From positions 110,064-174,063 of the IMG/VR virus record IMGVR_UViG_3300021077_000115: DNA of 64,000 bases. One strand, written 5' to 3'. The position numbers and the translations under genes were made by a program. The notes beneath the pieces were generated by a model. It saw nothing but the letters and a program-made list of their open reading frames with translations, was not told where the DNA came from and did not search any database. Shown piece by piece: positions 1 to 56,242 of this stretch (the first letter of the stretch is position 1; every line of letters starts with the position of its first letter). This stretch comes from a virus.

Positions 1-211
1 CCACTGAATGAGACCATGCGTCAAATCATACGGTGAAACTCCAACCCGAACCTTATCACCAGGCATTACCTGGATGTGCATTTGCCTCATCTTTCCGCAG
101 AGAGTAGCTCTTATAGGAGTTCCACCACCAGCAGGTTCGATTGCGTATTGGCCACCACCCAATGCATCGGTTACCTTGCCCTCAACCTCAACCAAACTTT
201 CCTTCGGCATT
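1..211 (-). CDS. infA: Translation initiation factor IF-1 homologue (3' end runs off window; not in ORF track)
   Basis: Reverse-strand translation from ATG at 209-211: MPKESLVEVEGKVTDALGGGQYAIEPAGGGTPIRATLCGKMRQMHIQVMPGDKVRVGVSPYDLTHGLIQW. GKMR, GDKV and SPYDL motifs of the S1-like IF-1 fold, about 70 of about 72 aa. AAAGGA RBS lies 8 nt upstream. Confidence 0.7.
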
Positions 212-221
212 ATCAAATCCT

Positions 222-479
222 TTACTTCAAATCTTCTAACATTCTCAACTCACCACTCTCAACTACGTTTCCTCTTCGTAGTTGATGAGCTACCTCAGCG
301 AAGCAATTGGCCCTATCAAACTCACCCTCCCTCCTGGCATGCATTGCATCGGCATCAAGCATCGATGCAAAGGCATTGAGGATCTGCTGTCGCTCTTCAG
401 GAGGGCAATCGTCACCAACCAATGTTCGTTCAGCTTTACCAATCATGACCGTCTCGATTGCTTCCGGGCCAACGACCAA
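222..479 (-). CDS. hypothetical protein (start may be ATG at ~443, MIGKAERTL)
   Basis: 85-aa ORF with protein-like composition, directly upstream of the infA-like gene. Confidence 0.4.
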   Translation of the reverse strand: MVVGPEAIETVMIGKAERTLVGDDCPPEERQQILNAFASMLDADAMHARREGEFDRANCFAEVAHQLRRGNVVESGELRMLEDLK

Positions 480-561
480 TACTCACGCTGCCATATGTAA
501 ACATTACCGACAGATAAAAACCGCACCCAACCAATTATGTTTCTAATTTCCTTGAAAATAT

Positions 562-753
562 TCATGATCTTCCTCCATACACCAAATAATGGGCTGGTTG
601 TTTTCCAGTTGTGACATTTGTTATGGCCGCATCAATCACTGATCGATTAGCCCTGATGAATTTGCGCTTTGAACTTCGGCTGGAACTCCACATCCTATAG
701 AGGCCTTCATCATTGTCAATCCAATTCTCTCGCTCTCTATCGTTCATATCCAA
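562..753 (-). CDS. hypothetical small protein
   Basis: 63-aa ORF, same strand as its neighbours. Confidence 0.3.
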   Translation of the reverse strand: MDMNDRERENWIDNDEGLYRMWSSSRSSKRKFIRANRSVIDAAITNVTTGKQPAHYLVYGGRS

Positions 754-840
754 GTCCTCGGTTTCACTTGTTTATCTGTAATACGAATAAACCAGTTTTA
801 TCTGTATGGCAAATAATTTGCGAATGTAGTTAGATGTAGG

Positions 841-1098
841 TTACTGAGCGCAGGTCTTTGTATCGCGGCAGTATATAGCGGAGGGACAGATCGTGTAGCT
901 GACCTCCATCATGGTTTGGCAATCGGCTTTGGCGACGGTCGGCCCATCGCAAAGTGAAATGACCTGGCCGTTGTCGTCAGTATAGTCTGTGCATTCGGTT
1001 GACGAATCCTTGACGGGCGTACTCTGTCCAGAAGGTGCTGAGCTGCAAGCCAGGATTATCAAAAATACAAACCCTAAACGTAATCGAATTGATGTCAT
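841..1098 (-). CDS. small lipoprotein, Cys-containing
   Basis: N-terminus MTSIRLRLGFVFLIILACSS carries an ILAC lipobox. Confidence 0.5.
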   Translation of the reverse strand: MTSIRLRLGFVFLIILACSSAPSGQSTPVKDSSTECTDYTDDNGQVISLCDGPTVAKADCQTMMEVSYTICPSAIYCRDTKTCAQ

Positions 1099-1373
1099 GT
1101 GCTATCACCGATTTTGATTGAGGTCTCATGAGTCAACAATTCAATTGCATCGAGCAATTGTCCTGGTCTCCGAAGGGCACATCCCCTTCTTAGAAGAACT
1201 AGGTTGGTTGGATTGTCTCCACCCATCATCATTAGCGCTTCCAGTAAGTACCTGGCCGCGTAGGAACCTTTTAACTCATCTAGGATGGCACATAGCCTGA
1301 CTGATTTATCAGTCCACGTCTTGGACTCATCCCTCAGCAGTTCCACAATCTTTACTTTGGCAACATCACTCAT
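1095..1373 (-). CDS. hypothetical protein
   Basis: 92-aa ORF; its start overlaps the next gene's stop. Confidence 0.45.
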   Translation of the reverse strand: MSDVAKVKIVELLRDESKTWTDKSVRLCAILDELKGSYAARYLLEALMMMGGDNPTNLVLLRRGCALRRPGQLLDAIELLTHETSIKIGDST

Positions 1374-1385
1374 TTGGTATGATCC

Positions 1386-2066
1386 TTAGGTGCAGGTTCC
1401 AGCGGTAAGTGCCGTGTGCCCAGTACATGTCCCCGCGTTGCAAGTTCCGTTACTAAAACAAGAACAACCAACCGTGCCAGAAGGACATGGCTTTGCGCTG
1501 CACATTGCCAAATTGCCAACCGGAACTTGTGTGTTGCAGATGTTCGTACCATTGCATATGTTATCAAGACAACATGGTTGATTTACGCCGCCACAAGCCA
1601 AGCAGACATTGAAGTTAGCCGAACCAATCACCGTGTTGCAAATGGTTGTTTTGATATCTTGGCATTCCCCAAGACAACATGGCTGCCCAAGCGTTGCATA
1701 AGCAATAGAACAGTCAGTTGTTATCGAGGTAGAGTTGCTACCACCACCTATATTTGCAGATCCGCCATTGGGGACTGCTCCGCCGGTACTGACACTGCCG
1801 CCAGTTGCCGAGATACCCACAGTGCCGCCAGTGCTGCCAGTAGGCTGATCCCCTCCAGTAGCTGAGCTAGCAACAGAGGTTCCTTTCGAACCTCCTGTAA
1901 CATTAGAGGCGGTCGTTGTTGTGTCGCTTCCGCCTGCACTCACGCTTGTTCCTACTCCTGAACTGCCACCAGTTTCTGTTACATCAGAACTGGTTACCGT
2001 TGTGCTGCTGCAAGCAGCAATGATTGCTAAAATAATCAATGAAAATAATCTTTGTATCGTTGTCAT
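1386..2066 (-). CDS. Cys-rich secreted lipoprotein with S/T/G-rich linker
   Basis: Lipobox IAAC in MTTIQRLFSLIILAIIAAC. Long Ser/Thr/Gly-rich region, then a repeated QPCC...C...C cysteine module. Confidence 0.6.
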   Translation of the reverse strand: MTTIQRLFSLIILAIIAACSSTTVTSSDVTETGGSSGVGTSVSAGGSDTTTTASNVTGGSKGTSVASSATGGDQPTGSTGGTVGISATGGSVSTGGAVPNGGSANIGGGSNSTSITTDCSIAYATLGQPCCLGECQDIKTTICNTVIGSANFNVCLACGGVNQPCCLDNICNGTNICNTQVPVGNLAMCSAKPCPSGTVGCSCFSNGTCNAGTCTGHTALTAGTCT

Positions 2067-2070
2067 TTGT

Positions 2071-2535
2071 TCACCAGGGATTTGCTAGGTAATATTCACG
2101 AACTTCATCAATGGTCACGTCGTTATCGCAACCAACGAATTGGCGAATTGGTTTAGATCTTGCCGGAATCTTGACACCTTTATTGGTGCGCTCATCAATT
2201 GTACTGCAGTGATGATATTGAACATCATCGCTACCAGCATCAGCGATACCTTGTCGTATCTTTTCTTCAATCTCCTCGACCTCAGCTGAAGATAGATCGC
2301 TAGAGGTTACGAAATTAGTTGCTGCAAGGTGAAGCGCGTATGATGGCGTAATCTCGCAACAATTAGTTACCGAATTATGATCGAATACGTAGGTAGAAAT
2401 GATCTTTGCATCCGGCCCAATCGAAGCTAAGAATTCCTTGTTCCAATGCTCCGTTTCGTCAATCTTAATCAAGTGATAATCAGGCTTTACCACAAGCCCT
2501 CCTGTTTTGTTTGCGCCATTTAAGGTATTCAGCAT
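2071..2535 (-). CDS. hypothetical protein
   Basis: 154-aa ORF; its 5' end overlaps 2480..2755 by 56 nt, so the start is uncertain. Confidence 0.45.
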   Translation of the reverse strand: MLNTLNGANKTGGLVVKPDYHLIKIDETEHWNKEFLASIGPDAKIISTYVFDHNSVTNCCEITPSYALHLAATNFVTSSDLSSAEVEEIEEKIRQGIADAGSDDVQYHHCSTIDERTNKGVKIPARSKPIRQFVGCDNDVTIDEVREYYLANPW

Positions 2536-2755
2536 TCAATTCGGCCGCGTTTTCTAACACCGTAATCTGCTTGTAACCTCTATTGATAAGACCCCGCCAA
2601 AGTTCGAGCCAACCAGAGCCAGATAACTCAATACTTTGGCCTTCAACAGAAACACCAACAACATCATCTCTGACGATTGATGACTCCAAACACCGCTCAC
2701 CAAGTTGGTATTTACCCAACGTAGTGAATGGGTTTATAGGTTTGATGTTTTTCAT
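2480..2755 (-). CDS. hypothetical protein
   Basis: 91-aa ORF. Confidence 0.4.
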   Translation of the reverse strand: MKNIKPINPFTTLGKYQLGERCLESSIVRDDVVGVSVEGQSIELSGSGWLELWRGLINRGYKQITVLENAAELNAEYLKWRKQNRRACGKA

Positions 2756-2958
2756 TTGCTAACCACCGTACAAGCCATCATACAATCAGAATCTATTTTC
2801 ATACAGCCAGGGTCTGTGCCGTACTTCGATACACAATTGTTCAATTGCTTGCTACAACTGTCATGACAGGAGACAACCGCACTCAGCTCTGGTCGGCTAC
2901 TACAGCTTATTGTTGTTACCAAAAGAGTTATACAAAACAATGTGGATTTCATTCCCAT
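2752..2958 (-). CDS. small Cys-rich lipoprotein
   Basis: MGMKSTLFCITLLVTTISCSS with a TISC lipobox; six Cys in the mature part. Confidence 0.5.
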   Translation of the reverse strand: MGMKSTLFCITLLVTTISCSSRPELSAVVSCHDSCSKQLNNCVSKYGTDPGCMKIDSDCMMACTVVSK

Positions 2959-3172
2959 CGCCTTTCCAAATAGCTACATACCTTGAGAACCATACCACGC
3001 AAGTCTTGAACTAACATCACTAGCGCAGCGTTCTCTTGTTTGAGAAGGGTATTCTCCTTTTTTAGACTCTCAAGCTCTTCTCTTGAACCGCCAATATTTC
3101 TATACATATAAATCCCCTAGAGGTTAGGGCTGGGGAGCAACACCACGAAAACTCCCCAGCCCTTTCCAAGTC

Positions 3173-3670
3173 TTAGCCACAGCCAGTAGTGAGGCCGTCC
3201 CAACAGTTGGCAAGTTCCTTGCCAACATAGACGCGGATTGTCCAACCTCGCGGGTCGCCTTGACGTTCTGCCTTCAGCCCAAGCTCTACTCCAATTTCCG
3301 CAACTCGCGCATCCATCTCGTTATCACGCTTGGTCTCGCGTTCACTCAACTCGCGATTGCAAGTATGTTCAGCCAGCAGCGAAGAGTATGGTCCCATGGC
3401 CCAGAGTTCCCGAGCCAATATCAAGGACTTTCCTCTTGGTATCTTGCTTGCAAGCTGAATTCTTCGAATGAAATCCTGGCGTGCAGTTAGCTTCTTTGTA
3501 GCCATTATCTCATTTTCCTTACTAAATACTGCTTTCTTACCGTCCAACTTAGCGTCTCGCTGACACTCTAGTTTTCTCATCCACGGATATTCTTTTGCCC
3601 TTGAATAAACAGGACTTCCCTCTTGCAACCCTCTGTAATAGTACGTAACTGGAACTCTTGCAATTGTCAT
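3173..3670 (-). CDS. hypothetical protein
   Basis: 165-aa ORF preceded by TTTTACCAAAGAAGATATATATC-ATG initiation motif. Confidence 0.55.
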   Translation of the reverse strand: MTIARVPVTYYYRGLQEGSPVYSRAKEYPWMRKLECQRDAKLDGKKAVFSKENEIMATKKLTARQDFIRRIQLASKIPRGKSLILARELWAMGPYSSLLAEHTCNRELSERETKRDNEMDARVAEIGVELGLKAERQGDPRGWTIRVYVGKELANCWDGLTTGCG

Positions 3671-3759
3671 GATATATATCTTCTTTGGTAAAAGAAAGAA
3701 GGTCGGAGAGTCAACACCACTAAAACTCTCCGACCTTCCAAGTCCATATCAATCGCAGC

Positions 3760-4020
3760 TTACCTTCGTTCTCTGCGGAACGTTACGCCAAGCTCTCTCT
3801 CAAGTATCTCACGAACCCTATAAAAGCAAACTCCGCAGCTATCAAGCACATCAGCTACTAGGTGCGGCTCATCGCTCATGCCATCTTCTTCGGATACAAG
3901 TTCAATCGTAGCCACGCCGCAGTTTGATTGATCTTCTATTGGGTCAATCTTACTTCCGCAGACGTCACAACTATGCGTGTGAATGCTGTGATCAACTTTG
4001 ATAATTTCTGTAGTCTTCAT
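3760..4020 (-). CDS. small zinc-ribbon protein
   Basis: CDVCGS...CGVC pairs; a GC-rich hairpin (4040-4070) sits upstream. Confidence 0.45.
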   Translation of the reverse strand: MKTTEIIKVDHSIHTHSCDVCGSKIDPIEDQSNCGVATIELVSEEDGMSDEPHLVADVLDSCGVCFYRVREILERELGVTFRRERR

Positions 4021-4075
4021 AACATAACCTATTAATTGCCGAAAGGGGCCGCCCTTTCAGGCAGCCCCCTCAGCA

Positions 4076-4327
4076 TCACTCATACATCGGCATCTCTTCA
4101 TCATCCCACTCGGGGATCTTGTCGTACACCAGCAAGTCAATGATCTGTTGCTCTTCCCAATGATCTGGGTGAATGTCCCATGCGCAGACCATATAGCCCT
4201 GGGCTAGCTTCAACAGCTGGTGTATATCGAAACGCTCAGCGAATGACTCACTGCCTGTACTGAATAAATTGTCCGCACGACGAAGTAATTCAATTCCCGT
4301 TACCTTCTGTGCATCTTTTAGTTTCAT
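4076..4327 (-). CDS. hypothetical protein
   Basis: 83-aa ORF. Confidence 0.4.
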   Translation of the reverse strand: MKLKDAQKVTGIELLRRADNLFSTGSESFAERFDIHQLLKLAQGYMVCAWDIHPDHWEEQQIIDLLVYDKIPEWDDEEMPMYE

Positions 4328-4908
4328 ACAATCTCCACAACCACCTCATCGTGGCCCAAGTCATAACCGGCCGCCTTGGCTAGAGAATTCTGCAAGCCCT
4401 TGCGCATCACGAATTTTCTTGACCGTAGCTCTTCCAAGCATCGCTCGTCACTAATTTCGCTGTAGTAGTCGGCCTCCAATAGCTTGTAGAATTCCTCGCA
4501 CAACCCAGAGCGCAAACGCTCAATATCATCACCGACACTGGCATTGTTGCCAGTATACGAAACCCTCCGTGTCATTGAGTGAACGTAGTGACGATCGTAG
4601 ACCTCTATCGAGCACTCCCACTTGTTCCTGGAGCGATATGTAATTCCAAGATGCCTGCAAACCTTCTTGAGGTCCACCTTGGCATCGAAGCAAGCACCAT
4701 CGCCTTGACTTGAGAACCCAGAGTACAAAACCTCAGGTTCCATGAACCCAATCTTCTCTAACTTCTCCTTGAACTCATCAACTAAAGGATCCGGTCGCCA
4801 TATCTCGGCAAGCGCTTCGCACTCTTCGCGAAGCAACTTCTCCTGGTAGGCTGTGGATAAATTATCGTAATCCAGAACCTCACAATCAATTATTACTCTC
4901 ATGTTCAC
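4324..4908 (-). CDS. hypothetical protein with YSGFSSQGDGACFDAKVD motif
   Basis: 194-aa ORF; the conserved-looking motif is not assignable to a family by eye. Confidence 0.5.
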   Translation of the reverse strand: MNMRVIIDCEVLDYDNLSTAYQEKLLREECEALAEIWRPDPLVDEFKEKLEKIGFMEPEVLYSGFSSQGDGACFDAKVDLKKVCRHLGITYRSRNKWECSIEVYDRHYVHSMTRRVSYTGNNASVGDDIERLRSGLCEEFYKLLEADYYSEISDERCLEELRSRKFVMRKGLQNSLAKAAGYDLGHDEVVVEIV

Positions 4909-5202
4909 TCATTTCAAATTGAAAAGAATTGCCGCACACACGCGAACCTTTTCTTCATGCTTCGGCTCAAAAGAAACAATAATTGCTTTTAACATAGCAA
5001 TGCCACGCGATTGATATTCTTTATCAATACCCCCACCAACAGGAATCTTTCCACCATTGAAAAATAAACCATTGACAATATCTGAATATTCTTTTTCATC
5101 AGCATAGCTCGGAAACTCAAAGCTCAACGCCTCTTTGAAAAAATCCTTTGGATATTCAAATAGACCACCAGATATTTTGGGAATGTTTAATTTGTTTGAC
5201 AT
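4909..5202 (-). CDS. hypothetical protein (weak SUKH/SMI1-KNR4-like pattern)
   Basis: Likely starts at MSNKLNIPK inside ORF 4909..5250; the NGG motif region resembles immunity-protein folds only weakly. Confidence 0.4.
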   Translation of the reverse strand: MSNKLNIPKISGGLFEYPKDFFKEALSFEFPSYADEKEYSDIVNGLFFNGGKIPVGGGIDKEYQSRGIAMLKAIIVSFEPKHEEKVRVCAAILFNLK

Positions 5203-5447
5203 AATCCACGCCTCATGTTCGCTTCCTTCTTCCAATGCGCAGCGGATCAAAGTACCACATCACTGCGCAAACAATGAATGCGAATACTAAATTCCTAATG
5301 TCCTCACCCGCCATCATCAACGGACTAGATCGTGTTGACAACTCCAAGGGGCATTCGGCTGATAACGTTATCCCTTGTTGCTATCGCTGCAATTCAGCAC
5401 CTTGAAATATCTATTGATGTTTTTATATTGAGGGGAGGTCGAGGGGC

Positions 5448-5726
5448 TCAGGCTGCGTATACTCGACGACCATTGATCTTGATTACCCCGGGCTCGTTGC
5501 CGCAGCGGATCGACTCGTACAGCCCCTCGACGTATTGGGTAGTGTCACACCCGAGATCGGAGCTGTCCACGGTATCAGCAGTGTCGTAGTCCATCAGCAA
5601 GCAGCTATTGAGCTCAGCGCGGCAAGTGTCGATCATCTCCACGATGCCATCGTCGCCCGCTTGGATCGCGTCGGCCTTGAGTGCGGAGATTTTGGATTCC
5701 ATTGAGTTTACCATTGAGTTTACCAT
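5448..5726 (-). CDS. hypothetical protein
   Basis: 92-aa ORF; its N-terminus lies in a 12-nt tandem duplication (MVNSMVNSM). Confidence 0.4.
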   Translation of the reverse strand: MVNSMVNSMESKISALKADAIQAGDDGIVEMIDTCRAELNSCLLMDYDTADTVDSSDLGCDTTQYVEGLYESIRCGNEPGVIKINGRRVYAA

Positions 5727-5760
5727 TGTCGCTTTCCGTCAGCTCGTTGCTGACACCCCT

Positions 5761-6006
5761 TTAGCCGGCCCCGACTTGACTCGGGTTCCGGCATTGGGTC
5801 CAGGACGACTTACCTGGCTTGAGTTTGGCAAACAAGTCCTGATCAACGTAGTCATCATCTTCAGGATGTTCATGGCCAGATACAATGTTGGTTTGATACC
5901 CTACCGCATGACACTTGCTGCATATCCACTCGAAGTTATGCGGCCTCGGTGGCTGCTGATAGTTTGGCTTTCCACTGAATACCTTGTGATGTAAACATGG
6001 TTCCAT
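5761..6006 (-). CDS. small Cys/His-rich protein
   Basis: 81 aa with C...C...H...H spacing. Confidence 0.35.
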   Translation of the reverse strand: MEPCLHHKVFSGKPNYQQPPRPHNFEWICSKCHAVGYQTNIVSGHEHPEDDDYVDQDLFAKLKPGKSSWTQCRNPSQVGAG

Positions 6007-6094
6007 AAAATTCTTCTTTCTGATTTTTGATTTATCGGCCGGCCTAATGCTTGTGAAAAATTAAGGGCAGCATGAAGCTGCCCTTCCCTCGGCA

Positions 6095-6760
6095 ACAGGA
6101 AAAGAAACCGACACAAAAATTTCTTCACCCGAGGTACGGGATCTGTACCTTACCCTGAGCCGTCGCGAGACGTGAGTCAACTAACGGGCTATGCCAGAGT
6201 CTTTGAAAAGAAAATGGCAGCACAACCAGGCGAGTTTTACCTCGGGTCTTCCTTTCGGATGCCATTCCTGATTGTGCCGCCAAACCCGCTTGAGTTATCA
6301 TTAGGCCGCCGAGCGCTATTTGGCGGGCTAGAGCAACAAAGCTCAACTCAAACTTGCTAAGGGTAGATTACGTTTCCGCCTTAGCCTCGCTCGGTTGGCC
6401 TCACCAACGCTGATCCTTTCGGGGTGACGTTGTGCTGTTCAACCGGAAGCTCCGCCTGGTCTGACGAAGCATTCTTAGCGACGGGCCAAGTTTTGAGAAA
6501 TACCCTTTGCACAAAGCTCAGAGCATCCCCGACCCACTTGGCTTAGCCGGACTTGGCAGTACATCCCAGTTAAGGGTAACCTCCTACGCACCAACGCGCA
6601 ACCGCTGTGGGAAACTAAGCACACGTATATTGCGGTACGTGGCTTATGGTGGATCTTTCACGATTCGAACGTGCCTCTCTGTTACGAGCGCTCACCAAGA
6701 ACCCTGACAGGTGCACGTGTCACCCTTGCAGATTCTCATCCTTTCGGATTGAGCTTAAGA
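6095..6760 (-). ncRNA. Unassigned large structured non-coding region (~650 nt) with tRNA-like 3' element and terminator
   Basis: No ORF of 60 codons or more is consistent with the neighbouring genes. Many short GC-rich helices (e.g. GTGGCGAAAGCCAC-type). On the minus strand a canonical T-loop lies near plus 6645-6675 (CACG-TTCGAAT-CGTG) followed by AAGATCC-A-CCA. A GGGCAGC-loop-GCTGCCC hairpin plus T-run at 6065-6095 sits at the minus-strand 3' side. Confidence 0.35.
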
Positions 6761-6770
6761 CCCTAAAATA

Positions 6771-7052
6771 TTATAATTGAGTATCTGGAAAACAATTATC
6801 ATTGATACAGTCAATGACAAGTTTTTGAATGCCTTTGAGTGCGTCATCACGATTCTTGTCTAGAAAGCTCAAGCTTGGGAGCTCAGCGCAGATTCCTACA
6901 AATTCCTGATCCTCTTCTGACCATGATACTTGATAGCTATAAACTGGTTCCGCTCCCAGAGCCTTCGCTACTAGTTGTGGGTCAACCAAACGCTCTGATT
7001 TAGACTCAGTAAAAACCTCTCGCTCGCTTGGCCCGGTTGTGACAATTTTCAT
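6771..7052 (-). CDS. HicB-like (UPF0150) antitoxin-family protein
   Basis: YSYQVSWSEEDQEFVGICAELPSLSFLDKNRDDALKGIQKLV matches the HicB N-terminal pattern (acidic residues, then hydrophobic-ELPG/S-x-S/T...EA/AL). No HicA partner was seen. Confidence 0.45.
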   Translation of the reverse strand: MKIVTTGPSEREVFTESKSERLVDPQLVAKALGAEPVYSYQVSWSEEDQEFVGICAELPSLSFLDKNRDDALKGIQKLVIDCINDNCFPDTQL

Positions 7053-7179
7053 TATAGCCTCTGTATAAAATTACAGTGTAGGTGGACCCGTTACAACTCG
7101 AACGTAACTCTCATTCGGTAGCTAACCGAAAGCGCTCTTCCCTGAGCCGAGGCCCGAAACATTCATGTAGGTAAGTGTG

Positions 7180-7527
7180 GGTGGAAGTGTTCGGAATCGA
7201 ACCGAAGTCTTGCGATCCTCTCTTATTTCCATCATTCACGTGCGTAGCCACTGTATCCCCAATGGCTGAGTTCGTCAATTCGGTGGACGACCTATTCACC
7301 TGTTTGTCTCGTAAGCAACTTCGGTAACCCAAGTTACTTACCAGCCTTTGTGGTTGGCAATCCTGACCGCTACCAAGACAATCTTGCGGAGGACCGGCCG
7401 TGCTACTTATTAGGCAGCTGCGGCGTATGCATTATCATTCGCATTTAGAACGCCTAATGTTTGGGTGTATTAGGACCACCTACACGCAGGAAATATTTCA
7501 GATCCCAATCGAAAACCTTTCACTCCC
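7180..7527 (-). ncRNA. ssrA: tmRNA (ssrA)
   Basis: Minus-strand 5' end GGGAGTGAAAGGTTTTCGATTGGGATCTG resembles E. coli GGGGCUGAUUCUGGAUUCGACGGGAU. Tag frame at revcomp 7442..7407 reads GCG AAT GAT AAT GCA TAC GCC GCA GCT GCC TAA TAA = ANDNAYAAAA** (cf. ANDENYALAA). 3' end has T-arm TTCGG-TTCGATT-CCGAA, then CACTTCC-A-CC, which pairs with the 5' GGGAGTG. Confidence 0.8.
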
Positions 7528-7699
7528 ATATTTAGAAACATAAGATAGCATAAGAAATTAAGATTCGCAAGGAGCCCCAGGTAAGTACCGGAATGGCTCG
7601 GAAGCCATTCGTGGCTTTCGCCACAGCCGCGTCAGTTCAGCCGTCCGCTGGGGAACATCCTTGCTTTGGGGGCGACCACCAGGAACCTTTCGGTTCCAG

Positions 7700-7772
7700 A
7701 GCTACTGAAAGGAATTGAACCTTCAACATCTTGATTACAGGTCAAGTGCTCTGCCAATTGAGCTACAGTAGC
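7700..7772 (-). tRNA. tRNA-Thr (anticodon UGU)
   Basis: Cloverleaf read by eye: acceptor GCTACTG/CAGTAGC, D-arm GCTC-AATTGGCA-GAGC, anticodon arm CTTGA-CCTGTAA-TCAAG (C33 unusual), 5-nt variable loop, T-arm GAAGG-TTCAATT-CCTTT, discriminator T, CCA not encoded. Confidence 0.75.
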
Positions 7773-12176: not shown

Positions 12177-12845
12177 TCAACAACCCACGAACCAATGTTT
12201 ATGCAAATGATCAGCGATATCAATGAGCAATTTGCTGCGACAATCATAAACGATTTTTTTAATCTTACACTTATCACAAGAATCGCAGGGCACGATTCCG
12301 ATGGGTGTGTTACAACAAAACATACAGTCCATTGGAATTTCAAAAGACATTAGCATTTTTATAAGCTGAACATTATCAATGTTCTTCAAAGGAAAGGCAT
12401 ACCGAATAGGCCCTCTCCGCGCACCTTCTAAGTTGTCTGCAAATGAATTGAAACTATTTAGAAGCTTCAAAAAATCCTTCTCTTGATAAGGTTCTCCCTT
12501 TTTATATCCCCATGAAACAATATCTTCAGGCTGAAAATATATTTGGAATAAGCTTGGCCACAGATGATGTTGCCTAAGCATGAGATCCCCTACTGCATTG
12601 CCACTCACCGATATCTCTTGCGCCTGAATGAAATGCCCAATCGACTTCGCAAAACGCAAATACTTGTGCCTTGCAATGGATTGAGCCCGCATCTGTCCAG
12701 CATTGCAACGATGATGTTCCTTTACCGACAATGTTATTACAGGGTTTTCCTTGGTGGAAAGCATACCCGCCATGTAAAGTATCGCCGTTGAATCCAAACC
12801 GCCTGACCAGATCACCACGTTGCGAGCCATTAGCTCACCCCGCAA
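12177..12845 (-). CDS. queC: QueC-like PP-loop ATPase (7-cyano-7-deazaguanine synthase family)
   Basis: N-terminal NVVIWSGGLDSTAILYMA PP-loop (SGGxDS) and C-terminal Cys cluster CCNTPIGIVPCDSCDKC, ~220 aa as for QueC; the middle region is divergent. Confidence 0.5.
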   Translation of the reverse strand: MRGELMARNVVIWSGGLDSTAILYMAGMLSTKENPVITLSVKEHHRCNAGQMRAQSIARHKYLRFAKSIGHFIQAQEISVSGNAVGDLMLRQHHLWPSLFQIYFQPEDIVSWGYKKGEPYQEKDFLKLLNSFNSFADNLEGARRGPIRYAFPLKNIDNVQLIKMLMSFEIPMDCMFCCNTPIGIVPCDSCDKCKIKKIVYDCRSKLLIDIADHLHKHWFVGC

Positions 12846-34660: not shown

Positions 34661-34845
34661 TGGGATTTTTATATCACGTCAAAAATGATACTAGCACTCC
34701 AATTGATCCGGATGCGAAATATCTTCTTGATTCTGATTCTCACTGGTCTGATGTTGATGACGACTCATTTAAGATGTTCATATGCATCTCTGGACTTATT
34801 GTTTCTTTGGGTGTAGCGGCACTTGTTTACTGGTTAGCAAAATGA
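34660..34845 (+). CDS. small membrane protein
   Basis: TAATG overlap; C-terminal TM helix. Confidence 0.4.
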   Translation: MGFLYHVKNDTSTPIDPDAKYLLDSDSHWSDVDDDSFKMFICISGLIVSLGVAALVYWLAK

Positions 34846-35168
34846 ATCTTTGGCTAGATGATGAACGCAATCCTCCCGATGGATGGGTATTGGTAAAGAC
34901 AGCCCTTGAGGCTATTGCTGCGTTGCGACGAAATGAATACGAAGCGATCTCTTTAGATCACGATCTTGGAGATGGCGGAACTGGTTACGATGTGCTTTTG
35001 TATATCGAAGCCGAAGTACATCGAAATCCAGACTACAAGTGCCCAAGGATATGGATTCACTCGGCGAACCCTGTTGGTCGTCAGAGAATGCAGCGAGCAA
35101 TAGATAGTATCTTCAGATATGTTGAAGATACGGCTGCTGATAATAGGACATTTGGTAAACAAGACTGA
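34842..35168 (+). CDS. receiver (REC)-like domain protein
   Basis: MNLWLDDERNPPDGWVLVKTALEAIAAL...ISLDHDLGDG pattern. Confidence 0.4.
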   Translation: MNLWLDDERNPPDGWVLVKTALEAIAALRRNEYEAISLDHDLGDGGTGYDVLLYIEAEVHRNPDYKCPRIWIHSANPVGRQRMQRAIDSIFRYVEDTAADNRTFGKQD

Positions 35169-38478: not shown

Positions 38479-38936
38479 AAAAGGTCACTCCCATCAGTAT
38501 AAATGGTATTTGCACTGGCTCTGAGAGAACAATTCCATTTGGAATGTTTGGAAGAATCGAGGCTAAGGCTACGCATGGGGGCGTGGGCCAGCGTGCAGTA
38601 TCATGGATAGCTAATGAAGAGACAGATGAGAATGGAAATACTACACACAGCATAACGGTTACTTTGTTCACTTTTAGAGGTAAAGGTCGTGGCAAGATTT
38701 TATCTGATGAAGTAACTTTAGTAGCACGCCGCAATACATATGATAAGTGCAACTCGGCAATGTTACAAATGTTGTATGAACGTAATATTGCTATAAGAAA
38801 CTCCGCAACACATGGGTTATTGGGCTGGCGCTTGGGATGTGGGTTGGTGCTGCTTTTCGACCTTTCAGTCTTTGCCTTTGATATGGCAATTGGATTTAGC
38901 ATTATCTGCTTTATATTTTGCGTAAATAGAAAATGA
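38475..38936 (+). CDS. hypothetical protein
   Basis: 153 aa; C-terminal TM helix. Confidence 0.45.
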   Translation: MKKVTPISINGICTGSERTIPFGMFGRIEAKATHGGVGQRAVSWIANEETDENGNTTHSITVTLFTFRGKGRGKILSDEVTLVARRNTYDKCNSAMLQMLYERNIAIRNSATHGLLGWRLGCGLVLLFDLSVFAFDMAIGFSIICFIFCVNRK

Positions 38937-39313
38937 CTATATTTGGACTTACTGGTGGGATAGCATGCGGCAAGAGTTCGGTAGCTGAAATCTTTCGTAA
39001 TGCCGGAGTTCCCATGGTGGGTGCCGATGAGGTTGCCCGTTCGCTGGTCTATCCTGGATCTCCTGTGCTGCAGGAGATTGTGCGGCACTTCGGGGCAGAC
39101 CTCTTGTTGGAAGATGGCAACTTGAATCGTCACAAGCTTGGGGCGTTGGTGTTCGGCGATCCTAAGAAGATGGATTTGTTGAATGACATCAATCGCAAGC
39201 CTGTTTTGGCGGCGATTGATTCTACCCTCAAGGAAGCTAATAAGACTGCTAGCTTGGTTGGGTACGATTGCGCACTGATCGTTGAGACGGGGCAGCAGGG
39301 AGCAGGTTATTGA
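38933..39313 (+). CDS. coaE: dephospho-CoA kinase-like P-loop protein (N-terminal ~60% only)
   Basis: MTIFGLTGGIACGKSS Walker A typical of CoaE; alignable with E. coli CoaE to about residue 125, then a stop, so lid and C-terminal part are absent. Confidence 0.5.
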   Translation: MTIFGLTGGIACGKSSVAEIFRNAGVPMVGADEVARSLVYPGSPVLQEIVRHFGADLLLEDGNLNRHKLGALVFGDPKKMDLLNDINRKPVLAAIDSTLKEANKTASLVGYDCALIVETGQQGAGY

Positions 39314-39457: not shown

Positions 39458-40045
39458 TTGCGCATGGGCGATATAGTAACTGGAAACGGTTTGTGTTTAT
39501 TTTGGACATCATGGCCATCTAATTGGCAATCTTCACCGATGACAATTGATAGCGTTCGCTATAGTTGCGTTGAACAATACATGATGTCTATGAAGGCTAG
39601 GTTATTTGGGGATCTGTTTAATCTGAAAAGGATTATGTCAACCCAAATTCCCAAATTGCAAAAACAATACGGAAGAGAAGTAAAGGGATTCAATCCGGAG
39701 ATATGGGGTGATGTTGCATATGAAGTTGTTCTTCGTGCAACAGTAGAGAAATACAGGCAGAATCCTAAGCTTCTAATTCTCCTTCAAAAAGCTGGTGACT
39801 TGGAATTTGTTGAGGCAAGTCCTGAAGATGTAATTTGGGGAATTGGATTGGGGACTGGTGATCCTGACGCACTCGATAAGTCCAAGTGGCGCGGACAGAA
39901 TCTGCTTGGGAAAGCAATCACCGAAGCCAAGAAGCTGATCGAAGATCTGGAGGCTACCGGCGTAACGCCTGGTGGCGGCGTCAACAAGATCTGGCGGCCA
40001 GGAACAATTGGAAAGTTCCTGATTGGGCTTGAAGAGGCTGGGTGA
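39458..40045 (+). CDS. NADAR-domain protein (YbiA/DUF1768 family)
   Basis: FWTSWPSNWQSSPMTIDSVRYSCVEQYMMSMKARLFGD...EASPEDVIWGIGLG pattern of the NADAR fold. Confidence 0.6.
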   Translation: MRMGDIVTGNGLCLFWTSWPSNWQSSPMTIDSVRYSCVEQYMMSMKARLFGDLFNLKRIMSTQIPKLQKQYGREVKGFNPEIWGDVAYEVVLRATVEKYRQNPKLLILLQKAGDLEFVEASPEDVIWGIGLGTGDPDALDKSKWRGQNLLGKAITEAKKLIEDLEATGVTPGGGVNKIWRPGTIGKFLIGLEEAG

Positions 40046-42465: not shown

Positions 42466-42963
42466 TTGACTCTGCTGGCTAATCTTGCTAGATTCTCATC
42501 AGGCCATGGTGACGCGGGAGAGCCGCGTACGGTGTTTTTTCGGGCCTGCTTGACCATTTAGCAGCCTGTTGTGTCACTTCATGAAACAGCCTAGCTAGTA
42601 GGCCGGTGAAATATCCGGCCTATTGACTTTAAGTTCAAAATAGTAATTGATGAGCACGGATCTGTAAGGCTTGTTGCGGCAGATATTCGTATTTCACGCA
42701 CCACATCAGAAGATGGCCAGTACAGAGTATATGATAATGTCGTTACCCTAACAGAACGTGGACAAGAGGATCATGATAAACTAGTCAAGGCTGGATTGGA
42801 GAAAATCCAAAATGGTTTTGACTGGAACGTTAATCTGCGAACAACCATGCTGTTTTTCTAGAAATAGATTCTTTCCAGTTCCTCGGGATCAGGTAAAAGA
42901 AACTGTTCCGGGTTACGCCGGAGACCCTCCTTAATAGTTGATATATTGTATTGAGGAGTTTTT

Positions 42964-45493: not shown

Positions 45494-45718
45494 ATGACTA
45501 CAGAAAAAAAGTATGACAAACCATTATTGACACTAAACTGTGCTGATCATAAGTGGATAGTCCACGAGGGTCATTGGGTATCAGATAATGGAGAAATGAT
45601 ACTGATGACTGATGGAAATCCATCTCGTCAGATAGTTGGAAGTGGTAGAGTTGTGTTTGCTGTGCATTTGCTAGATATGTATCTAGCTATGGAAAAAGAG
45701 CTAAGAGCGCTAAAATGA
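45494..45718 (+). CDS. hypothetical protein
   Basis: 74-aa ORF. Confidence 0.4.
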   Translation: MTTEKKYDKPLLTLNCADHKWIVHEGHWVSDNGEMILMTDGNPSRQIVGSGRVVFAVHLLDMYLAMEKELRALK

Positions 45719-46626
45719 TTACTCGCGATGGAAAGCTTGAGATTTTTGAAAACTTCATTGTAGATGCTAGTCTACCAAAACATTTTGGAAAGAAACGCTC
45801 AGAGCTTTCCAAAATGGTAAATGCTTGGGTTGATTATCACAGAGATAGCGACAGCGAGTCCAAGAATGATGGTGATGTTGGGTTTATCCAGGCATGGAGA
45901 GAACCCGAAGAAATGGATATTCCTGGTCTTGTTAAGACCGAAGGTGACGGATTTATAATTGGGAATAGAAAATATCGCAATAAGAAGGTTTGGTCTTTCT
46001 TATTATTCCCGATATTATGGATGGTTGGATTATTCAGAAAAAAGAAGATGGCAAAGATTGAAGCAGCAAGAATGTCCGTAAAGGACTTCTTCGCCTCAAT
46101 AAAAAACTCTGCCAGAGAGCTTGAGATTGTTGCCGAGCGCGCTGCCGGATACGAGAAAGCCTTGATCAACGCCACCAAAGCCGGACAGGTTGCCCTTAAG
46201 GAGCGTCTGTTGAGTGGCTTGGATGCGCACCGCTCTGAGACCCAACTATTTGCTTCAGATCATAAGAAATACGTCACTGAAGAAGATGTGGTGAAATTTG
46301 TCAAGCAAGCCAAACGTGGATTGCGGCTTGATTGGATTAAGAACTTTACTAGAATTATTCCTAATGAAGTAATTTTTACCAAAGTAAGTCTTGATGAATT
46401 GACTGTGTTTGATAACTACGTTGTCATGCACTACGATCCAAACAAGAATTCTTGGGCGGAAACTCAAGAGGAAGCAAATAGGAGAAGAGACCCTATATTG
46501 TTTGGTGTAATTCTTGGTAGTAGAAAACTGTATTTCGTTGGTGATTGGGTTGATGATCTATGCGACCTGACACTTGAGCAGATAGCCGCTGAGCTTGGGC
46601 AGCAAGCCATAAAGGAAATTGTATAA
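45715..46626 (+). CDS. hypothetical protein
   Basis: 303 aa; internal TM segment. Confidence 0.5.
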   Translation: MITRDGKLEIFENFIVDASLPKHFGKKRSELSKMVNAWVDYHRDSDSESKNDGDVGFIQAWREPEEMDIPGLVKTEGDGFIIGNRKYRNKKVWSFLLFPILWMVGLFRKKKMAKIEAARMSVKDFFASIKNSARELEIVAERAAGYEKALINATKAGQVALKERLLSGLDAHRSETQLFASDHKKYVTEEDVVKFVKQAKRGLRLDWIKNFTRIIPNEVIFTKVSLDELTVFDNYVVMHYDPNKNSWAETQEEANRRRDPILFGVILGSRKLYFVGDWVDDLCDLTLEQIAAELGQQAIKEIV

Positions 46627-48595: not shown

Positions 48596-48683
48596 GTCGA
48601 GAGTCTTAGCCAGAAAAACTTAATAACCCAGTCCTAGTTTGCCTTCCCGTAGTTCTAGGACTGGGTTAATTTATTGGGACAAA

Positions 48684-49022
48684 ATGAAACGCCAAATATT
48701 CAAGTCAAAGATCCATCGAGCAACCGTAACTGGATCAAATATAGACTACGAAGGTAGTGTTACGATTGACTCTAATTTAATGCGAGCGGCTGATATTGTT
48801 CCATATGAGGCAGTTCATATTTGGAACATAACTAACGGTTCACGCCTTTTCACATACGCCATTCAGGGTGATAATGACAGCGGAGAAATTTGTATCAATG
48901 GCGCTGGGGCAAAGCTGTGCAATGTTGGAGATCTAGTTATTATCGCAACATTTACCGAGATGACAAACAAAGTAGCCCGCAAGTGGATACCAAGGGTTGC
49001 CAGCAGTTCAACGGAAACTTGA
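48684..49022 (+). CDS. panD: aspartate 1-decarboxylase (pyruvoyl-dependent)
   Basis: [78 protein letters not shown]; the [10 protein letters not shown]...YEGS(pyruvoyl Ser)...ICINGAAA pattern is diagnostic. Confidence 0.7.
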
Positions 49023-49032
49023 CTAAAGTTAC

Positions 49033-49269
49033 TTGACTCCGCTCAACCCGTGGGTAATCCTTTTATCAGATCGGATGTACATGAAGATGAAAGTGGTTCG
49101 AGTTTCGGCCACTGAGTTCGAATTGGAAGACGGTAGGGTATTTCCCCACGTCACCCCACTCGAACCGGTTCCGACTCCCGAAGAGTTTCAAGTACATTAC
49201 GACCTGTGGTCAGATCGGTTGAAGTCCAAGGATGTCCAGTGGCCTCGTTTCGCTCAAAAAAGCGGCTGA
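49033..49269 (+). CDS. hypothetical protein (overlaps tnpA start)
   Basis: 78 aa; weak. Confidence 0.3.
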   Translation: MTPLNPWVILLSDRMYMKMKVVRVSATEFELEDGRVFPHVTPLEPVPTPEEFQVHYDLWSDRLKSKDVQWPRFAQKSG

Positions 49270-49855
49270 AATCCTTGGTTGTGGTACCTCGACGCTTCGG
49301 ACTTGGGACAAGAACAAGAGCCTCGTAGCCGTTAGAACCCCAGGTGGTCAGCGCCGGTACCGCACTGAAGACCTAGACCGCTTCCAAGGGATCATCAAAA
49401 AGACCTCCAAGATGTCGGAAAATGTCGCTGTCTACGCTCGGGTTTCGAGCCATGAGCAGAAGGCTAAGGGCGACCTTGACCGTCAAAAGGGAAGGCTTCT
49501 AGAGCATTGCGTCAAGCAGAGCTACTCGGTGACGCATGTCATGGAGGAAGTCGGATCTGGGATGACGGACACTCGGCCGAAGATGCTCCGCCTTCTTGAG
49601 TTGGCCACGAGGGGCGAGATTGGGCGGGTGGTTATCGAGCACAAGGATCGACTCGCGAGGTTCAACTTCAACATATTCCAAAAGTTCTTCGAGAGTCATG
49701 GTGTACAGGTTGAGTGGCTGGAAAACGTGCTCCCAAAGTCCTACGAGGCCGAACTAGTCGAGGATATGGTCAGCCTCATGTCCAGCTTCTCAGCCAAAGT
49801 TTACGGAAAACGGAGCGCTGAGAACCGCCGAAAGAAGAAGCAAGAGGCCGCCTGA
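49232..49855 (+). CDS. tnpA: IS607-type serine recombinase/transposase TnpA (MerR-like HTH + resolvase catalytic domain)
   Basis: LKKAAEILGCGTSTLRTWDKNKSLVAVRTPGGQRRYRTEDL HTH, then VAVYARVSSHEQK catalytic-Ser motif. Confidence 0.8.
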   Translation: MSSGLVSLKKAAEILGCGTSTLRTWDKNKSLVAVRTPGGQRRYRTEDLDRFQGIIKKTSKMSENVAVYARVSSHEQKAKGDLDRQKGRLLEHCVKQSYSVTHVMEEVGSGMTDTRPKMLRLLELATRGEIGRVVIEHKDRLARFNFNIFQKFFESHGVQVEWLENVLPKSYEAELVEDMVSLMSSFSAKVYGKRSAENRRKKKQEAA

Positions 49856-50190: not shown

Positions 50191-50603
50191 CAAGTTACTC
50201 CAACTTCTTTGAGATGCTGGACGCTATTGAAGCGAAGATGCAAGACCCACGTTGTAAGGAGGCTGGACTCACCCCTTACACAGGGGAGCCTCTACTAACG
50301 AGTATGGATCTTGGGTGGATCGTTGCGCTTCCCCTAAGCGAACGGGACGAAACATTCCAGTTCAGTGTGAGTCTACGTCAGATAAAGATTGACCGGCAAG
50401 ATCCTAGATGGGCCGATGCTTATGCCAGGCTCCAATCATTTACGACCCACTTCATTACATGTCCAAAGCATGGGGTGGTTAAAGGCATCCCGATACACAA
50501 GCTTCAAGGCAAGAAAGAGGGATCTGAGACGCTGGTATGCATACCTTGTGTGGCTGAGCGCATGGTGAATCCTGTTCGAACTTCAGCCAATCTCTCGATA
50601 TGA
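50169..50603 (+). CDS. hypothetical protein between tnpA and tnpB (C..H...C..C)
   Basis: 144-aa ORF. Confidence 0.4.
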   Translation: MVRKEPMTSYSNFFEMLDAIEAKMQDPRCKEAGLTPYTGEPLLTSMDLGWIVALPLSERDETFQFSVSLRQIKIDRQDPRWADAYARLQSFTTHFITCPKHGVVKGIPIHKLQGKKEGSETLVCIPCVAERMVNPVRTSANLSI

Positions 50604-52027
50604 AGAAATGTCGGTTCTTCATGCTGCATCCTGAGTGCAACCCTGGGAAGATTCAATCCCTGGAAGCTCTTCACGTCGAGTACATAGCTTATGTCCGGAT
50701 CTGCGTTCAGACGATGCTCAAAGCCCATAGGCTGACTTTGCCCCGCTCGGAGAAGCAGGACTTCTTCCCCAGGGCTGAGAAGCTTACGTCTCAGATTGAG
50801 AAAAACGCCCGCGACCATGCCATCCAGATTGTGAGCACTTGGGCTAAGTCGGTTTATGCCAGGAAGATCAAGACTTTCATCAGGTTATCTTTCAAAGAGG
50901 GGAACTTTGACGAGGACTTCTGTAAGCAGCTTTACACGGTGGGTAAGTACTTGATTCATGAGCCGAAGGAAACCGTGTCCCAGGAAGCAATTGATCTGTA
51001 TTGGTCTTGGCTCTCTGACCCAGAAGTAGTGGGGAACCCGCCTTCCATATCCAGTCGGATTCCAATGAGGATGTCGGAGAACACCTGCTCATTGGAAGAC
51101 CCAGAAGAGGCTACCCACGCGGATCTTTGGCTCAAGATCTCAACTTTGATTTCTCGGAAGCTTGCTTGGCTACCACTGGTTGGGAACCCATACGTCAAGA
51201 AGTCATCTGACGTAAGTAAGGGAATCCACGCTAGAAAAGACCGAAAGGGCCGTTGGCGGTTCGAAGCCGTTGATACCAAAGAGTGGTTGGTCTGCGAGGC
51301 CGAACCTGACTTACCCAGGATTGGAGTCGATGTAGGACTAAACGTGGTAGCGGCTACTTCGAGCGGACACGTGTTTGGGGCCTACCTAAAACCCAAGTTC
51401 AACAGGCTCTACGACAAGGTCAGGGAAGTCAGGGCGAACCGCCAAAGGCAGGATCTCAAGGAGAACAGTCCTAGGCTAGACCGACTAGAATCACGCCTCT
51501 CTGGCTTGACCAAGAGCTTCACGGGACGGGTATCCAATGAACTGATCCGAACGTACTCTGAGTCCGTCTTCGTCTTAGAAGACCTAGATCTTCGTGGTTG
51601 TCGTGGGCAAAAACGCTTCTGTTACAGGGAATTAGCTCATGCCCTTGAATCAAAGGCTCCAACTGAAAAGGTGAATCCGGCCTACAGTTCTCAGACATGC
51701 CCTTCGTGTGGGCATGTCTCTAGATACAATCGGGCTGGAATAGATTTCATCTGTCGCCAGTGCGGCAGGATTTCACATGCCGACGTGGTAGGAGGGATCA
51801 ATTTGCTCGGACGTTCCGAGAGCAAACAGATTGGCCTCGATGATCATCCGTCGGAAGTGAAGGGAGTGCTTGTGAGGCTATACTGGTCTAGGAGGAATCC
51901 GGATCAGGACTGTCCACAAGACTTCTTGAATAAATACGCGCCATTACCGTATGGCCGAAGGCTTACTACCAGGGGACTCTCTCGAAAGAGAAGCACTGGC
52001 ATAGCTTTTAATCAGGTAGCTGCTTGA
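50600..52027 (+). CDS. tnpB: TnpB (OrfB_IS605/RuvC-like RNA-guided nuclease family)
   Basis: RuvC-I IGVDVGLN, RuvC-II VFVLEDLDL, zinc finger CPSCGH...CRQCG, RuvC-III HADVVGGINLL. Confidence 0.8.
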   Translation: MKKCRFFMLHPECNPGKIQSLEALHVEYIAYVRICVQTMLKAHRLTLPRSEKQDFFPRAEKLTSQIEKNARDHAIQIVSTWAKSVYARKIKTFIRLSFKEGNFDEDFCKQLYTVGKYLIHEPKETVSQEAIDLYWSWLSDPEVVGNPPSISSRIPMRMSENTCSLEDPEEATHADLWLKISTLISRKLAWLPLVGNPYVKKSSDVSKGIHARKDRKGRWRFEAVDTKEWLVCEAEPDLPRIGVDVGLNVVAATSSGHVFGAYLKPKFNRLYDKVREVRANRQRQDLKENSPRLDRLESRLSGLTKSFTGRVSNELIRTYSESVFVLEDLDLRGCRGQKRFCYRELAHALESKAPTEKVNPAYSSQTCPSCGHVSRYNRAGIDFICRQCGRISHADVVGGINLLGRSESKQIGLDDHPSEVKGVLVRLYWSRRNPDQDCPQDFLNKYAPLPYGRRLTTRGLSRKRSTGIAFNQVAA

Positions 52028-56166: not shown

Positions 56167-56242
56167 CATCGGGCGGACAGCCTGATACGATGTCGGCAAC
56201 CTTCTCACGGAGAGAAGAAGTCGGTACAACACGGAGAGTGTT

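Follow-up and report, generated by a model that had tools for sequence, protein, structure and literature searches.

The closest described systems to the locus analyzed here are found in very large phages. The huge phages of Al-Shayeb and co-workers carry genes for translation components that include IF1, IF3, transfer-messenger RNA (tmRNA) and SmpB, and an interception of host translation was proposed for them (Al-Shayeb 2020, Nature 578:425, PMC7162821), with the additional observation of large putative plasmids that have analogous suites of translation genes (PMC7162821). Peptidyl-tRNA hydrolases of the PTH2 type and PIN-PhoH proteins occur across the jumbo phages (Iyer et al. 2021, Viruses 13:63, PMC7824862), in which PTH2 was proposed to hydrolyze peptidyl-tRNA when ribosomes blocked by broken tRNAs are rescued (PMC7824862). 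That huge and jumbo phages may encode IF-1, tmRNA and PTH2 has thus been published before, as has the ribosome-rescue idea (PMC7162821, PMC7824862), and the rescue and counter-defence role put forward in an original prediction on the DNA studied here is essentially the same one (PMC7162821, PMC7824862). This DNA is a stretch of 64,000 nt of the record IMGVR_UViG_3300021077_000115 (the window, from here on), in which an infA-like gene for IF-1, a tmRNA, a tRNA-Thr and a PTH2-like gene were found. It is probably the accessory-gene region of an uncultured huge phage of around 392 kb, or of a phage-like extrachromosomal element of this size, with translation components of its own that were apparently acquired separately and that would keep ribosomes working for the phage. 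The locus is a new and very divergent representative of the published huge-phage carriers of translation genes.

The region examined comprised the window and around 18 kb of flanking sequence (around 82 kb altogether). The features that carry the main finding, listed below with the spacer between the two RNA genes, were these:

1-210, minus strand: infA-like gene for IF-1, identified by its translation, Pfam, NCBIfam, PDB alignments and the clade motif ALGGGQY.

7179-7527, minus strand: one-piece tmRNA (ssrA-like) with the tag (A)ANDNAYAAAA followed by UAAUAA, identified by ARAGORN, Rfam RF00023 and a manual check.

7528-7698, minus strand: spacer of 171 nt between tRNA and tmRNA with GNRA-capped hairpins, from reading of the sequence.

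7699-7772, minus strand: tRNA-Thr with anticodon UGU and unencoded CCA, identified by ARAGORN, Rfam RF00005 (69.3 bits) and its cloverleaf fold.

60318-60770, plus strand: divergent PTH2-fold hydrolase of 150 aa, a putative peptidyl-tRNA hydrolase, identified by Pfam, phrog_1866 and a structure model.

The scores of IF-1, tmRNA, tRNA-Thr and PTH2 are all far above chance. Regarding their layout, on the leftward arm the tRNA-Thr gene lies beside that of the tmRNA, with the IF-1 gene on this strand as well, 7 kb downstream of them, and the PTH2 gene belongs to the rightward arm, at 53 kb from the tRNA and tmRNA. Because of this distance and of the location of PTH2 in an opposite block, and because neither tRNA nor tmRNA was found within 10 kb of the IF-1 or PTH2 loci of the relatives, the four do not form one conserved module, and the single translation toolkit in which they had been grouped originally is an overstatement.

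The ATG of the IF-1 gene is located at 210-208, in such a way that codons 1-70 out of 74 are inside the window and the last 4 and the stop codon lie beyond its left edge; the complete 74-aa gene is present in three overlapping metagenome contigs (L001, L008, L014). An infA homologue running off the edge had been predicted here correctly, but it ends at position 210 and not 211, and its strand, previously unnamed, is the minus one. The 70-aa fragment scored 52.8 bits against the Pfam family PF01176 (eIF-1a, cut-off 30.2), and the full 74-aa protein passed narrowly the NCBIfam equivalog TIGR00008 (infA), with 65.5 versus 61.15. Its residues 1-73 are colinear with residues 1-72 or 2-73 of IF-1 chains in PDB (E 3e-15). 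In comparison with the solved bacterial proteins (PDB 4QL5, 2N8N, 1HR0), it has the same length, belongs to the same oligonucleotide/oligosaccharide-binding fold family, is colinear over all 72-74 residues and conserves the core GKxR...PGDKVxV..SPYDLTxG..xxR. By contrast, the LPNAMF segment of the bacterial proteins is replaced here by ALGGGQY, a motif conserved in the clade of this protein, and the loop that follows the motif has an insertion of one residue. The region of this LPNAMF/GGGQY loop is, as we assume, the one that contacts helix 44 in the 30S-IF1 structure.

Proteins of the GGGQY type were found in two kinds of setting. One of them (P0155) is in a phage-like setting on a 297-kb contig (L041), adjoining cREC_REC, BubE and TnpB. 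The other one (P0017, 57% identical to the IF-1 of the window) is encoded on a 232-kb contig with a guanine-cytosine (GC) content of 62% (L039 10001-10228) in a cellular neighbourhood, with genes for alpha-2-macroglobulin, glutathione synthetase, hemerythrin, a PAS/histidine kinase and RCC1 repeats as neighbours, so the GGGQY subtype is not phage-specific and also exists in some bacteria. This cellular copy may point to the host lineage of the phage. In a rough neighbour-joining tree of 74 columns, which is a weak tree, the copies in phage context were sister to the cellular cluster, and this topology is compatible with a capture from a host lineage.

Among 50,697 deposited phage records searched by tblastn, IF-1 was detected in 36 and PTH2 in 47, in both cases concentrated in very large genomes. 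The matches of IF-1 were with Lak megaphages (540-550 kb), LR756511 (595 kb) and the Sinorhizobium phage Phosso (469 kb), to which the protein of the window is only 38-45% identical. The description of these genes as unusual cargo is overstated: they are rare overall, but they are concentrated in jumbo phages and megaphages, where they had already been described (PMC7162821, PMC7824862). The locus resembles the huge-phage repertoires (Lak, LR756xxx) in the combination of tRNA, tmRNA and IF-1 in a genome larger than 200 kb, and also in the proposed role of redirecting or maintaining host translation.

The tmRNA was delimited by ARAGORN at 7180-7527 on the minus strand, with the tag ANDNAYAAAA closed by two stop symbols, and matched Rfam RF00023 with 96 bits (gathering score 47) along model positions 1-374, this is, at full length. 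By manual reading, the acceptor stem GGGAGUG/CACUUCC contains the G3.U70 pair that alanyl-tRNA synthetase (AlaRS) uses, the resume codon is a GCG at nt 86, and the tag frame closes with UAAUAA; the 3' end is ACC, for which completion to CCA is needed. These data agree with the full tmRNA and with the nearby tRNA-Thr(UGU) of the original prediction. The tRNA-Thr and the adjacent tmRNA are plausibly co-transcribed, from one precursor, and the GNRA-capped stretch between them is probably a processed spacer of such a precursor, as judged from its sequence. Whereas many huge phages have tRNA-rich arrays, only two tRNAs were found in the region examined, the second one being a tRNA-Ala(CGC) to the right of the window (L004 13257-13328, minus strand). 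Contigs of other samples share 99.8-100% identity with the window in the tmRNA region, so this region belongs stably to the genome. Several assemblies break between window positions 5290 and 5792, and a sister contig from another sample (L020) has around 290 extra bases (L020 2160-2449) at window position ~10036, an indel that represents strain-level variation in the arm of small open reading frames (ORFs).

The PTH2 protein matched Pfam PF01981 with 65.4 bits (cut-off 23) along profile positions 2-114 out of 115, and an AlphaFold model that made use of 50 relatives reached a mean predicted local distance difference test score (pLDDT) of 90.5. This model gave 14 significant matches in PDB, all of them Pth2/Bit1 structures, with target template modelling (TM) values of 0.64-0.79 for crystal chains and of 0.49 for the nuclear magnetic resonance model 1rzw. 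Residues K40, Q44, H47 and D115-AGL-T119 are invariant in the 50 relatives, and the motifs GK..AQ..H and DAGLT line up with those conserved in archaeal Pth2 proteins of PDB. The scores stayed far below the cut-offs of both Pth2 equivalogs, with 52.6 versus 126 bits for NF003314 and 38.9 versus 82 bits for TIGR00283. The protein is thus a divergent enzyme of the PTH2 fold, and not a plain orthologue of the characterised archaeal Pth2; the assignment originally made to a PTH2-type hydrolase stands as regards family and fold, but not at the level of the equivalogs. Its clade is a separate, environmental one with at least 130 proteins, several of which are encoded on contigs of 233-463 kb. The matches in deposited phages include gp325 of Bacillus phage G, Klebsiella RaK2/K64-1 and Xanthomonas XacN1. 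With these jumbo-phage proteins the protein of the window shares the archaeo-eukaryotic type, the location in a very large genome, the association with PIN-PhoH and RNA-repair genes and a proposed role in recycling the peptidyl-tRNA of ribosomes that are rescued after cleavage of tRNA or mRNA; it is only 28-35% identical to them, and it differs from them by a 24-residue N-terminal extension, a longer helical insert and the membership of a separate clade with a conserved Pro_CA_2-like partner gene.

The neighbourhood of PTH2 includes the following genes:

55288-56166, plus strand: Apyc1-like metallo-beta-lactamase (MBL) hydrolase of the anti-Pycsar family, identified by Pfam/PHROG and by synteny with L011, L012 and L015.

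56243-57292, plus strand: NadR-like nicotinamide mononucleotide (NMN) adenylyltransferase-Nudix protein, identified by Pfam/PHROG (phrog_395, 1e-69) and by synteny with L011, L012 and L015.

59716-60315, plus strand: Pro_CA_2-like protein (Pfam, 30.1 bits), with its stop 2 nt before the PTH2 start.

61978-63276, plus strand: PIN-PhoH protein, a putative RNA nuclease/helicase, identified by Pfam (PIN_4 and PhoH), phrog_2765 (1e-101) and synteny.

The Pro_CA_2-like/PTH2 pair is also found in L011, L015, L016 and L017, and the best full-length matches of the PIN-PhoH protein are with jumbo phages, at 30-40% identity. Conserved around PTH2 are the Pro_CA_2-like, PIN-PhoH and Apyc1-like genes, the NadR-like gene (accompanied by NAMPT in relatives) and a 2H phosphoesterase gene just past the window. 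Judged from these families, the neighbourhood is a predicted cluster for RNA repair, nicotinamide adenine dinucleotide (NAD) salvage and anti-defence, and with this content a rescue after RNA damage fits better than a general takeover of translation. The 2H phosphoesterase (L004 12205-12810) showed similarity to LigT and faintly to Acb1. Candidate genes for counter-defence and RNA repair are clustered at 55288-57292, 39458-40045 and 34782-35168 (all on the plus strand) and at L004 12205-12810, and comprise the Apyc1-like, NadR-like and NADAR proteins, a cREC_REC cyclic-phosphate-processing domain and the 2H phosphoesterase. A PTH2 protein 75% identical to that of the window (P0028, on a 463-kb contig, MCK9567360.1) is labelled in NCBI as "Candidatus Pacearchaeota archaeon", and we judged this label a probable binning artefact, since the lineage has a tmRNA and an IF-1 of bacterial type and the neighbourhood of P0028 (L015, L016) is syntenic with the phage-like genome.

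Concerning the kind of element to which these genes belong, a simple gene call of the window gave 142 ORFs with a median of 96 aa, a largest product of 475 aa and a density of 89%. They form two divergent blocks, with 53 out of 54 ORFs on the minus strand to the left of position ~22.7 kb and 87 out of 88 on the plus strand to its right, and the sign of the GC skew changes at this same boundary. When 108 small ORFs were screened together, only 5 matched Pfam and 5 matched PHROGs. The annotated minority includes, apart from the PIN-PhoH, NadR-like and Apyc1-like genes, those for NADAR, QueC-like, DHH and metallophosphoesterase proteins, HNH and EndoVII endonucleases, cREC_REC, PanD, a CoaE fragment and an IS607-type recombinase/TnpB pair, and these genes are cargo typical of large phages. 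Beyond the window, at least 8.5 kb of short orphan ORFs continue to the left of IF-1, one with a Phage_ProQ_C_like domain, and no ribosomal or secY neighbourhood was seen beside IF-1. The right flank carries a Zn-ribbon gene, the 2H phosphoesterase, the tRNA-Ala(CGC), ATP-binding cassette (ABC) transporter genes and an AAA protein.

For the IF-1, PTH2 and HicB-like proteins (the latter described below), the longest contig on record with the exact protein has in each case 391,957 bp, a size above the 200 kb that define a huge or jumbo phage. At the DNA level, 49 kb of the window gave no match by megablast with the 50,697 phage records. At the protein level, a 62.7-kb viral contig of IMG/VR showed synteny of six genes with the PTH2 region, at 53-75% amino-acid identity (75% for PTH2), a second viral contig of 169 kb was also syntenic with a 59% identical PTH2, and an uncultivated viral genome (UViG) of 322.6 kb encodes a 58% identical IF-1 adjoining a protein with a tail-fibre domain. 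Further relatives of PTH2 are located on contigs of 446-463 kb. The phage-like context described in the original prediction is supported by the orphan ORFs on both sides, by the exact proteins on the 392-kb contig and by the viral relatives.

The genes for translation components are intact and conserved in relatives, and they are located in a non-cellular, phage-like genome. They are under apparent purifying selection, given the invariant motif residues of PTH2 and the conserved core of IF-1. In the mechanism that we regard as the most likely, the products of these genes would maintain the ribosome pool of the host late in infection or under attack. The phage IF-1 would supplement or replace that of the host on the 30S subunit. 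The tmRNA, with its G3.U70 pair, could be charged by the host AlaRS and delivered by SmpB, which would be encoded by the host unless its gene is in the unseen part of the genome, and it would rescue ribosomes stalled on damaged mRNAs and tag their products. The PTH2-like enzyme would free the tRNAs trapped as peptidyl-tRNA, and the PIN-PhoH, 2H phosphoesterase, NadR-like, Apyc1-like and NADAR proteins may repair the damage produced by, or counter, defences based on RNA, NAD and cyclic nucleotides.

Several observations weigh against this explanation. Neither capsid nor portal, terminase or tail genes were seen in the window and its flanks, in such a way that a phage is strongly indicated and not proven, and sets of genes of this kind can also be present on large elements that resemble plasmids (PMC7162821). 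Scores below the equivalog cut-offs mean that the substrate of the PTH2 protein may differ from peptidyl-tRNA, and with the GGGQY loop a normal function of IF-1 is not assured, as far as its sequence can tell. The codon ACA represents just 28% of the Thr codons, so codon usage provides no rationale for the tRNA-Thr(UGU). Finally, SmpB, which is listed for the huge phages of Al-Shayeb, gave no family match in the ORFs of the window or in the annotated flanks (around 82 kb, with around 310 kb of the genome outside).

The lack of structural and packaging genes in the region examined would also be explained if the element were a very large plasmid-like or non-viral extrachromosomal one, whose translation genes served the element or its host in general. 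The large putative plasmids with analogous translation genes mentioned above agree with this, as do the PTH2 homologues found on 10 megaplasmids or chromids, the ABC transporter genes of the right flank and the presence of several transposase genes. However, the relatives are classed as viral in IMG/VR, many families are PHROG-specific and accompanied by homing endonucleases of phage type, the anti-defence genes (Apyc1, NADAR) are typical of phages, and both the gene sizes and the orphan fraction are those typical of accessory arms in jumbo phages. Moreover, no genes for replication, partition or conjugation were seen in the window and flanks, and we regard an element of this class as unlikely.

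A different role for the tmRNA was considered in relation to its tag and to the ORF that follows it. Two further features are located there:

6771-7052, minus strand: orphan protein of 93 aa with a HicB-family domain, identified through relatives that carry PF05534 (HicB).

6040-6770, minus strand: ORF-free, hairpin-rich stretch, a candidate structured RNA, identified by the ORF gap, its folding and a terminator.

The tag ends in AAAA instead of LAA, so the Leu present in the canonical ...ALAA end is missing from it. An LAA end is important for recognition by ClpX in E. coli. As a degenerate pattern, ANDNAYAAAA had 0 matches in GTDB species genomes, a relaxed ANDNAYAA(A) pattern produced six matches in JGI metagenomes, all of them unrelated and not in tmRNAs, and neither the 5' nor the 3' end of the tmRNA had a match in IMG/VR. 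The HicB-like ORF has the tmRNA on one side and the ORF-free stretch on the other; its resemblance to HicB covers residues 38-85 (around 48 residues), through relatives with PF05534, and the protein had no direct match in Pfam, NCBIfam or PHROG. Neither a HicA partner nor a DNA-binding tail was seen for it, and it could be an orphan antitoxin acting against HicA-type RNases of the host. On these bases, the tmRNA might compete with that of the host, with an AAAA tag that alters or avoids degradation of the ClpXP type or acts as a sensor or decoy, and the HicB-like protein might neutralise host HicA-type RNases that cut mRNA and tmRNA. The unmatched tag, the missing Leu and the HicB-family ORF placed directly after the tmRNA would agree with this scheme. 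Against it, tag ends vary naturally among bacteria, the HicB assignment concerns some 48 residues with no match to a curated model, and the scheme is purely conjectural, so that we find it improbable.

That the left end is ordinary bacterial chromosome with core infA and ssrA genes, beside whose ssrA a phage or island was integrated, is hardly credible: ssrA is a classic integration site for prophages, and the GGGQY-type P0017 lies in a clearly cellular neighbourhood, but short orphan ORFs on the same strand flank both tmRNA and IF-1, no smpB, ribosomal, secY, adk or map genes were seen, neither an integrase nor an att-like junction nor a duplicated tmRNA 3' end exists nearby, the tmRNA being single, full length and not an att fragment, the sole recombinase is the IS607-type one 42 kb away, GC content and skew show no break across the region, and the tag is absent from the species-representative genomes of GTDB. 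The bacterial infA-ssrA neighbourhood named in the original prediction as the finding that would refute it was searched for at this end, and it is not there.

The stretch at 6040-6770 is the second-largest ORF gap of the window and contains many hairpins of GNRA type. Its minus strand folded with a minimum free energy of -281.5 kcal/mol (z -4.5) and its plus strand with -242.4 (z -3.2), compared with z values of -0.56 and -0.25 for two coding controls. However, an unrelated intergenic gap of 498 nt on the plus strand (42466-42963, the third-largest one), with several strong hairpins, reached a z of -4.2, so folding alone does not establish a single large RNA at 6040-6770. Terminators, regulatory elements or a small RNA might be located in this other gap. 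The ORF-free stretch is closed by a terminator-like hairpin at 6085-6063, the only strong one in the region, and has in L020 an 11-nt insertion at position ~6589. Searches against Rfam gave no family at E<=1 (2.3 kb) or at E<=10 (781 nt). No homologues were detected by blastn against phages (INPHARED), where the tRNA alone matched, nor by nhmmer against the collected loci, with three 20-22-mers in IMG/VR, or beside the relatives of the HicB-like ORF, including one on a 512-kb contig. An RNase P RNA, group I or II introns and a HicB gene split by an intron were considered and rejected for this stretch, given the lack of Rfam support and a terminator that precedes the next ORF.

ROOL and GOLLD are large ornate RNAs known from phages and prophages, and in phages they lie near tRNA genes (Kretsch et al., bioRxiv 10.1101/2024.12.08.627333). 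The stretch resembles them in its location beside genes of tRNA type in a phage-type genome, in its length of several hundred nt, in the absence of ORFs and in the GNRA-capped hairpins; by contrast, it did not match ROOL (RF03087) or GOLLD (RF01998) even at E<=10 and it comes without covariation evidence, so the likeness is one of setting only. Given that it is co-oriented with the tRNA, tmRNA and HicB-like genes, directly downstream of them and closed by a terminator, it might represent a large structured phage RNA of a new class, tied to translation or ribosome rescue. We hold this reading as rather doubtful. If it were true, this phage lineage, also in view of its GGGQY IF-1 and AAAA tag, would modify ribosome function in novel, undescribed ways that go beyond topping up host factors.

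Other genes in and beside the window were also noted. The IS607-type pair consists of a serine recombinase with a MerR helix-turn-helix domain (49232-49855, plus strand) and a 475-aa TnpB (50600-52027, plus strand) with a Cas12f1-like TNB domain, and it is located in a GC-richer segment (0.51 versus ~0.43); no protein closely related to this TnpB was detected in GTDB species genomes. Upstream of the pair there is another transposase-like ORF (45715-46626, plus strand). Two auxiliary genes related to coenzyme A were found on the plus strand at 48639-49022 and 38933-39313, one for the aspartate decarboxylase PanD (Pfam 6e-43) and one for a 126-aa dephospho-CoA kinase CoaE that is possibly truncated. 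A QueC-like protein (12177-12845, minus strand; Pfam QueC 3e-9, phrog_1550), with a score far below the QueC equivalog cut-off, may act in the 7-deazaguanine modification of DNA or tRNA. In the right flank (L004 16054-19232, plus strand), the ABC set comprises an NMT1/OmpA-fused substrate-binding protein, a permease and an ATPase; this set and the tRNA-Ala(CGC) are conserved in L015 and L016, and constitute an unusual metabolic cargo for a phage-like genome.

Altogether, this locus adds an uncultured and very divergent lineage, with genomes of around 390-460 kb, to the huge phages that encode parts of the translation apparatus. Its IF-1 belongs to a subtype with a rebuilt loop that huge phages have in common with some bacteria, a hint of an origin in the host. 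The analysis also documents a separate environmental clade of PTH2 with a Pro_CA_2-like partner inside a putative RNA-repair, NAD-salvage and anti-defence cluster, and a tmRNA tag that is new to the reference genomes searched. The current picture of the translational takeover by phages is supported and unchanged by these data, and the new details that they bring to it are the GGGQY subtype of IF-1, the divergent PTH2 clade and its partner, the unmatched tag and the RNA-like stretch at 6040-6770.

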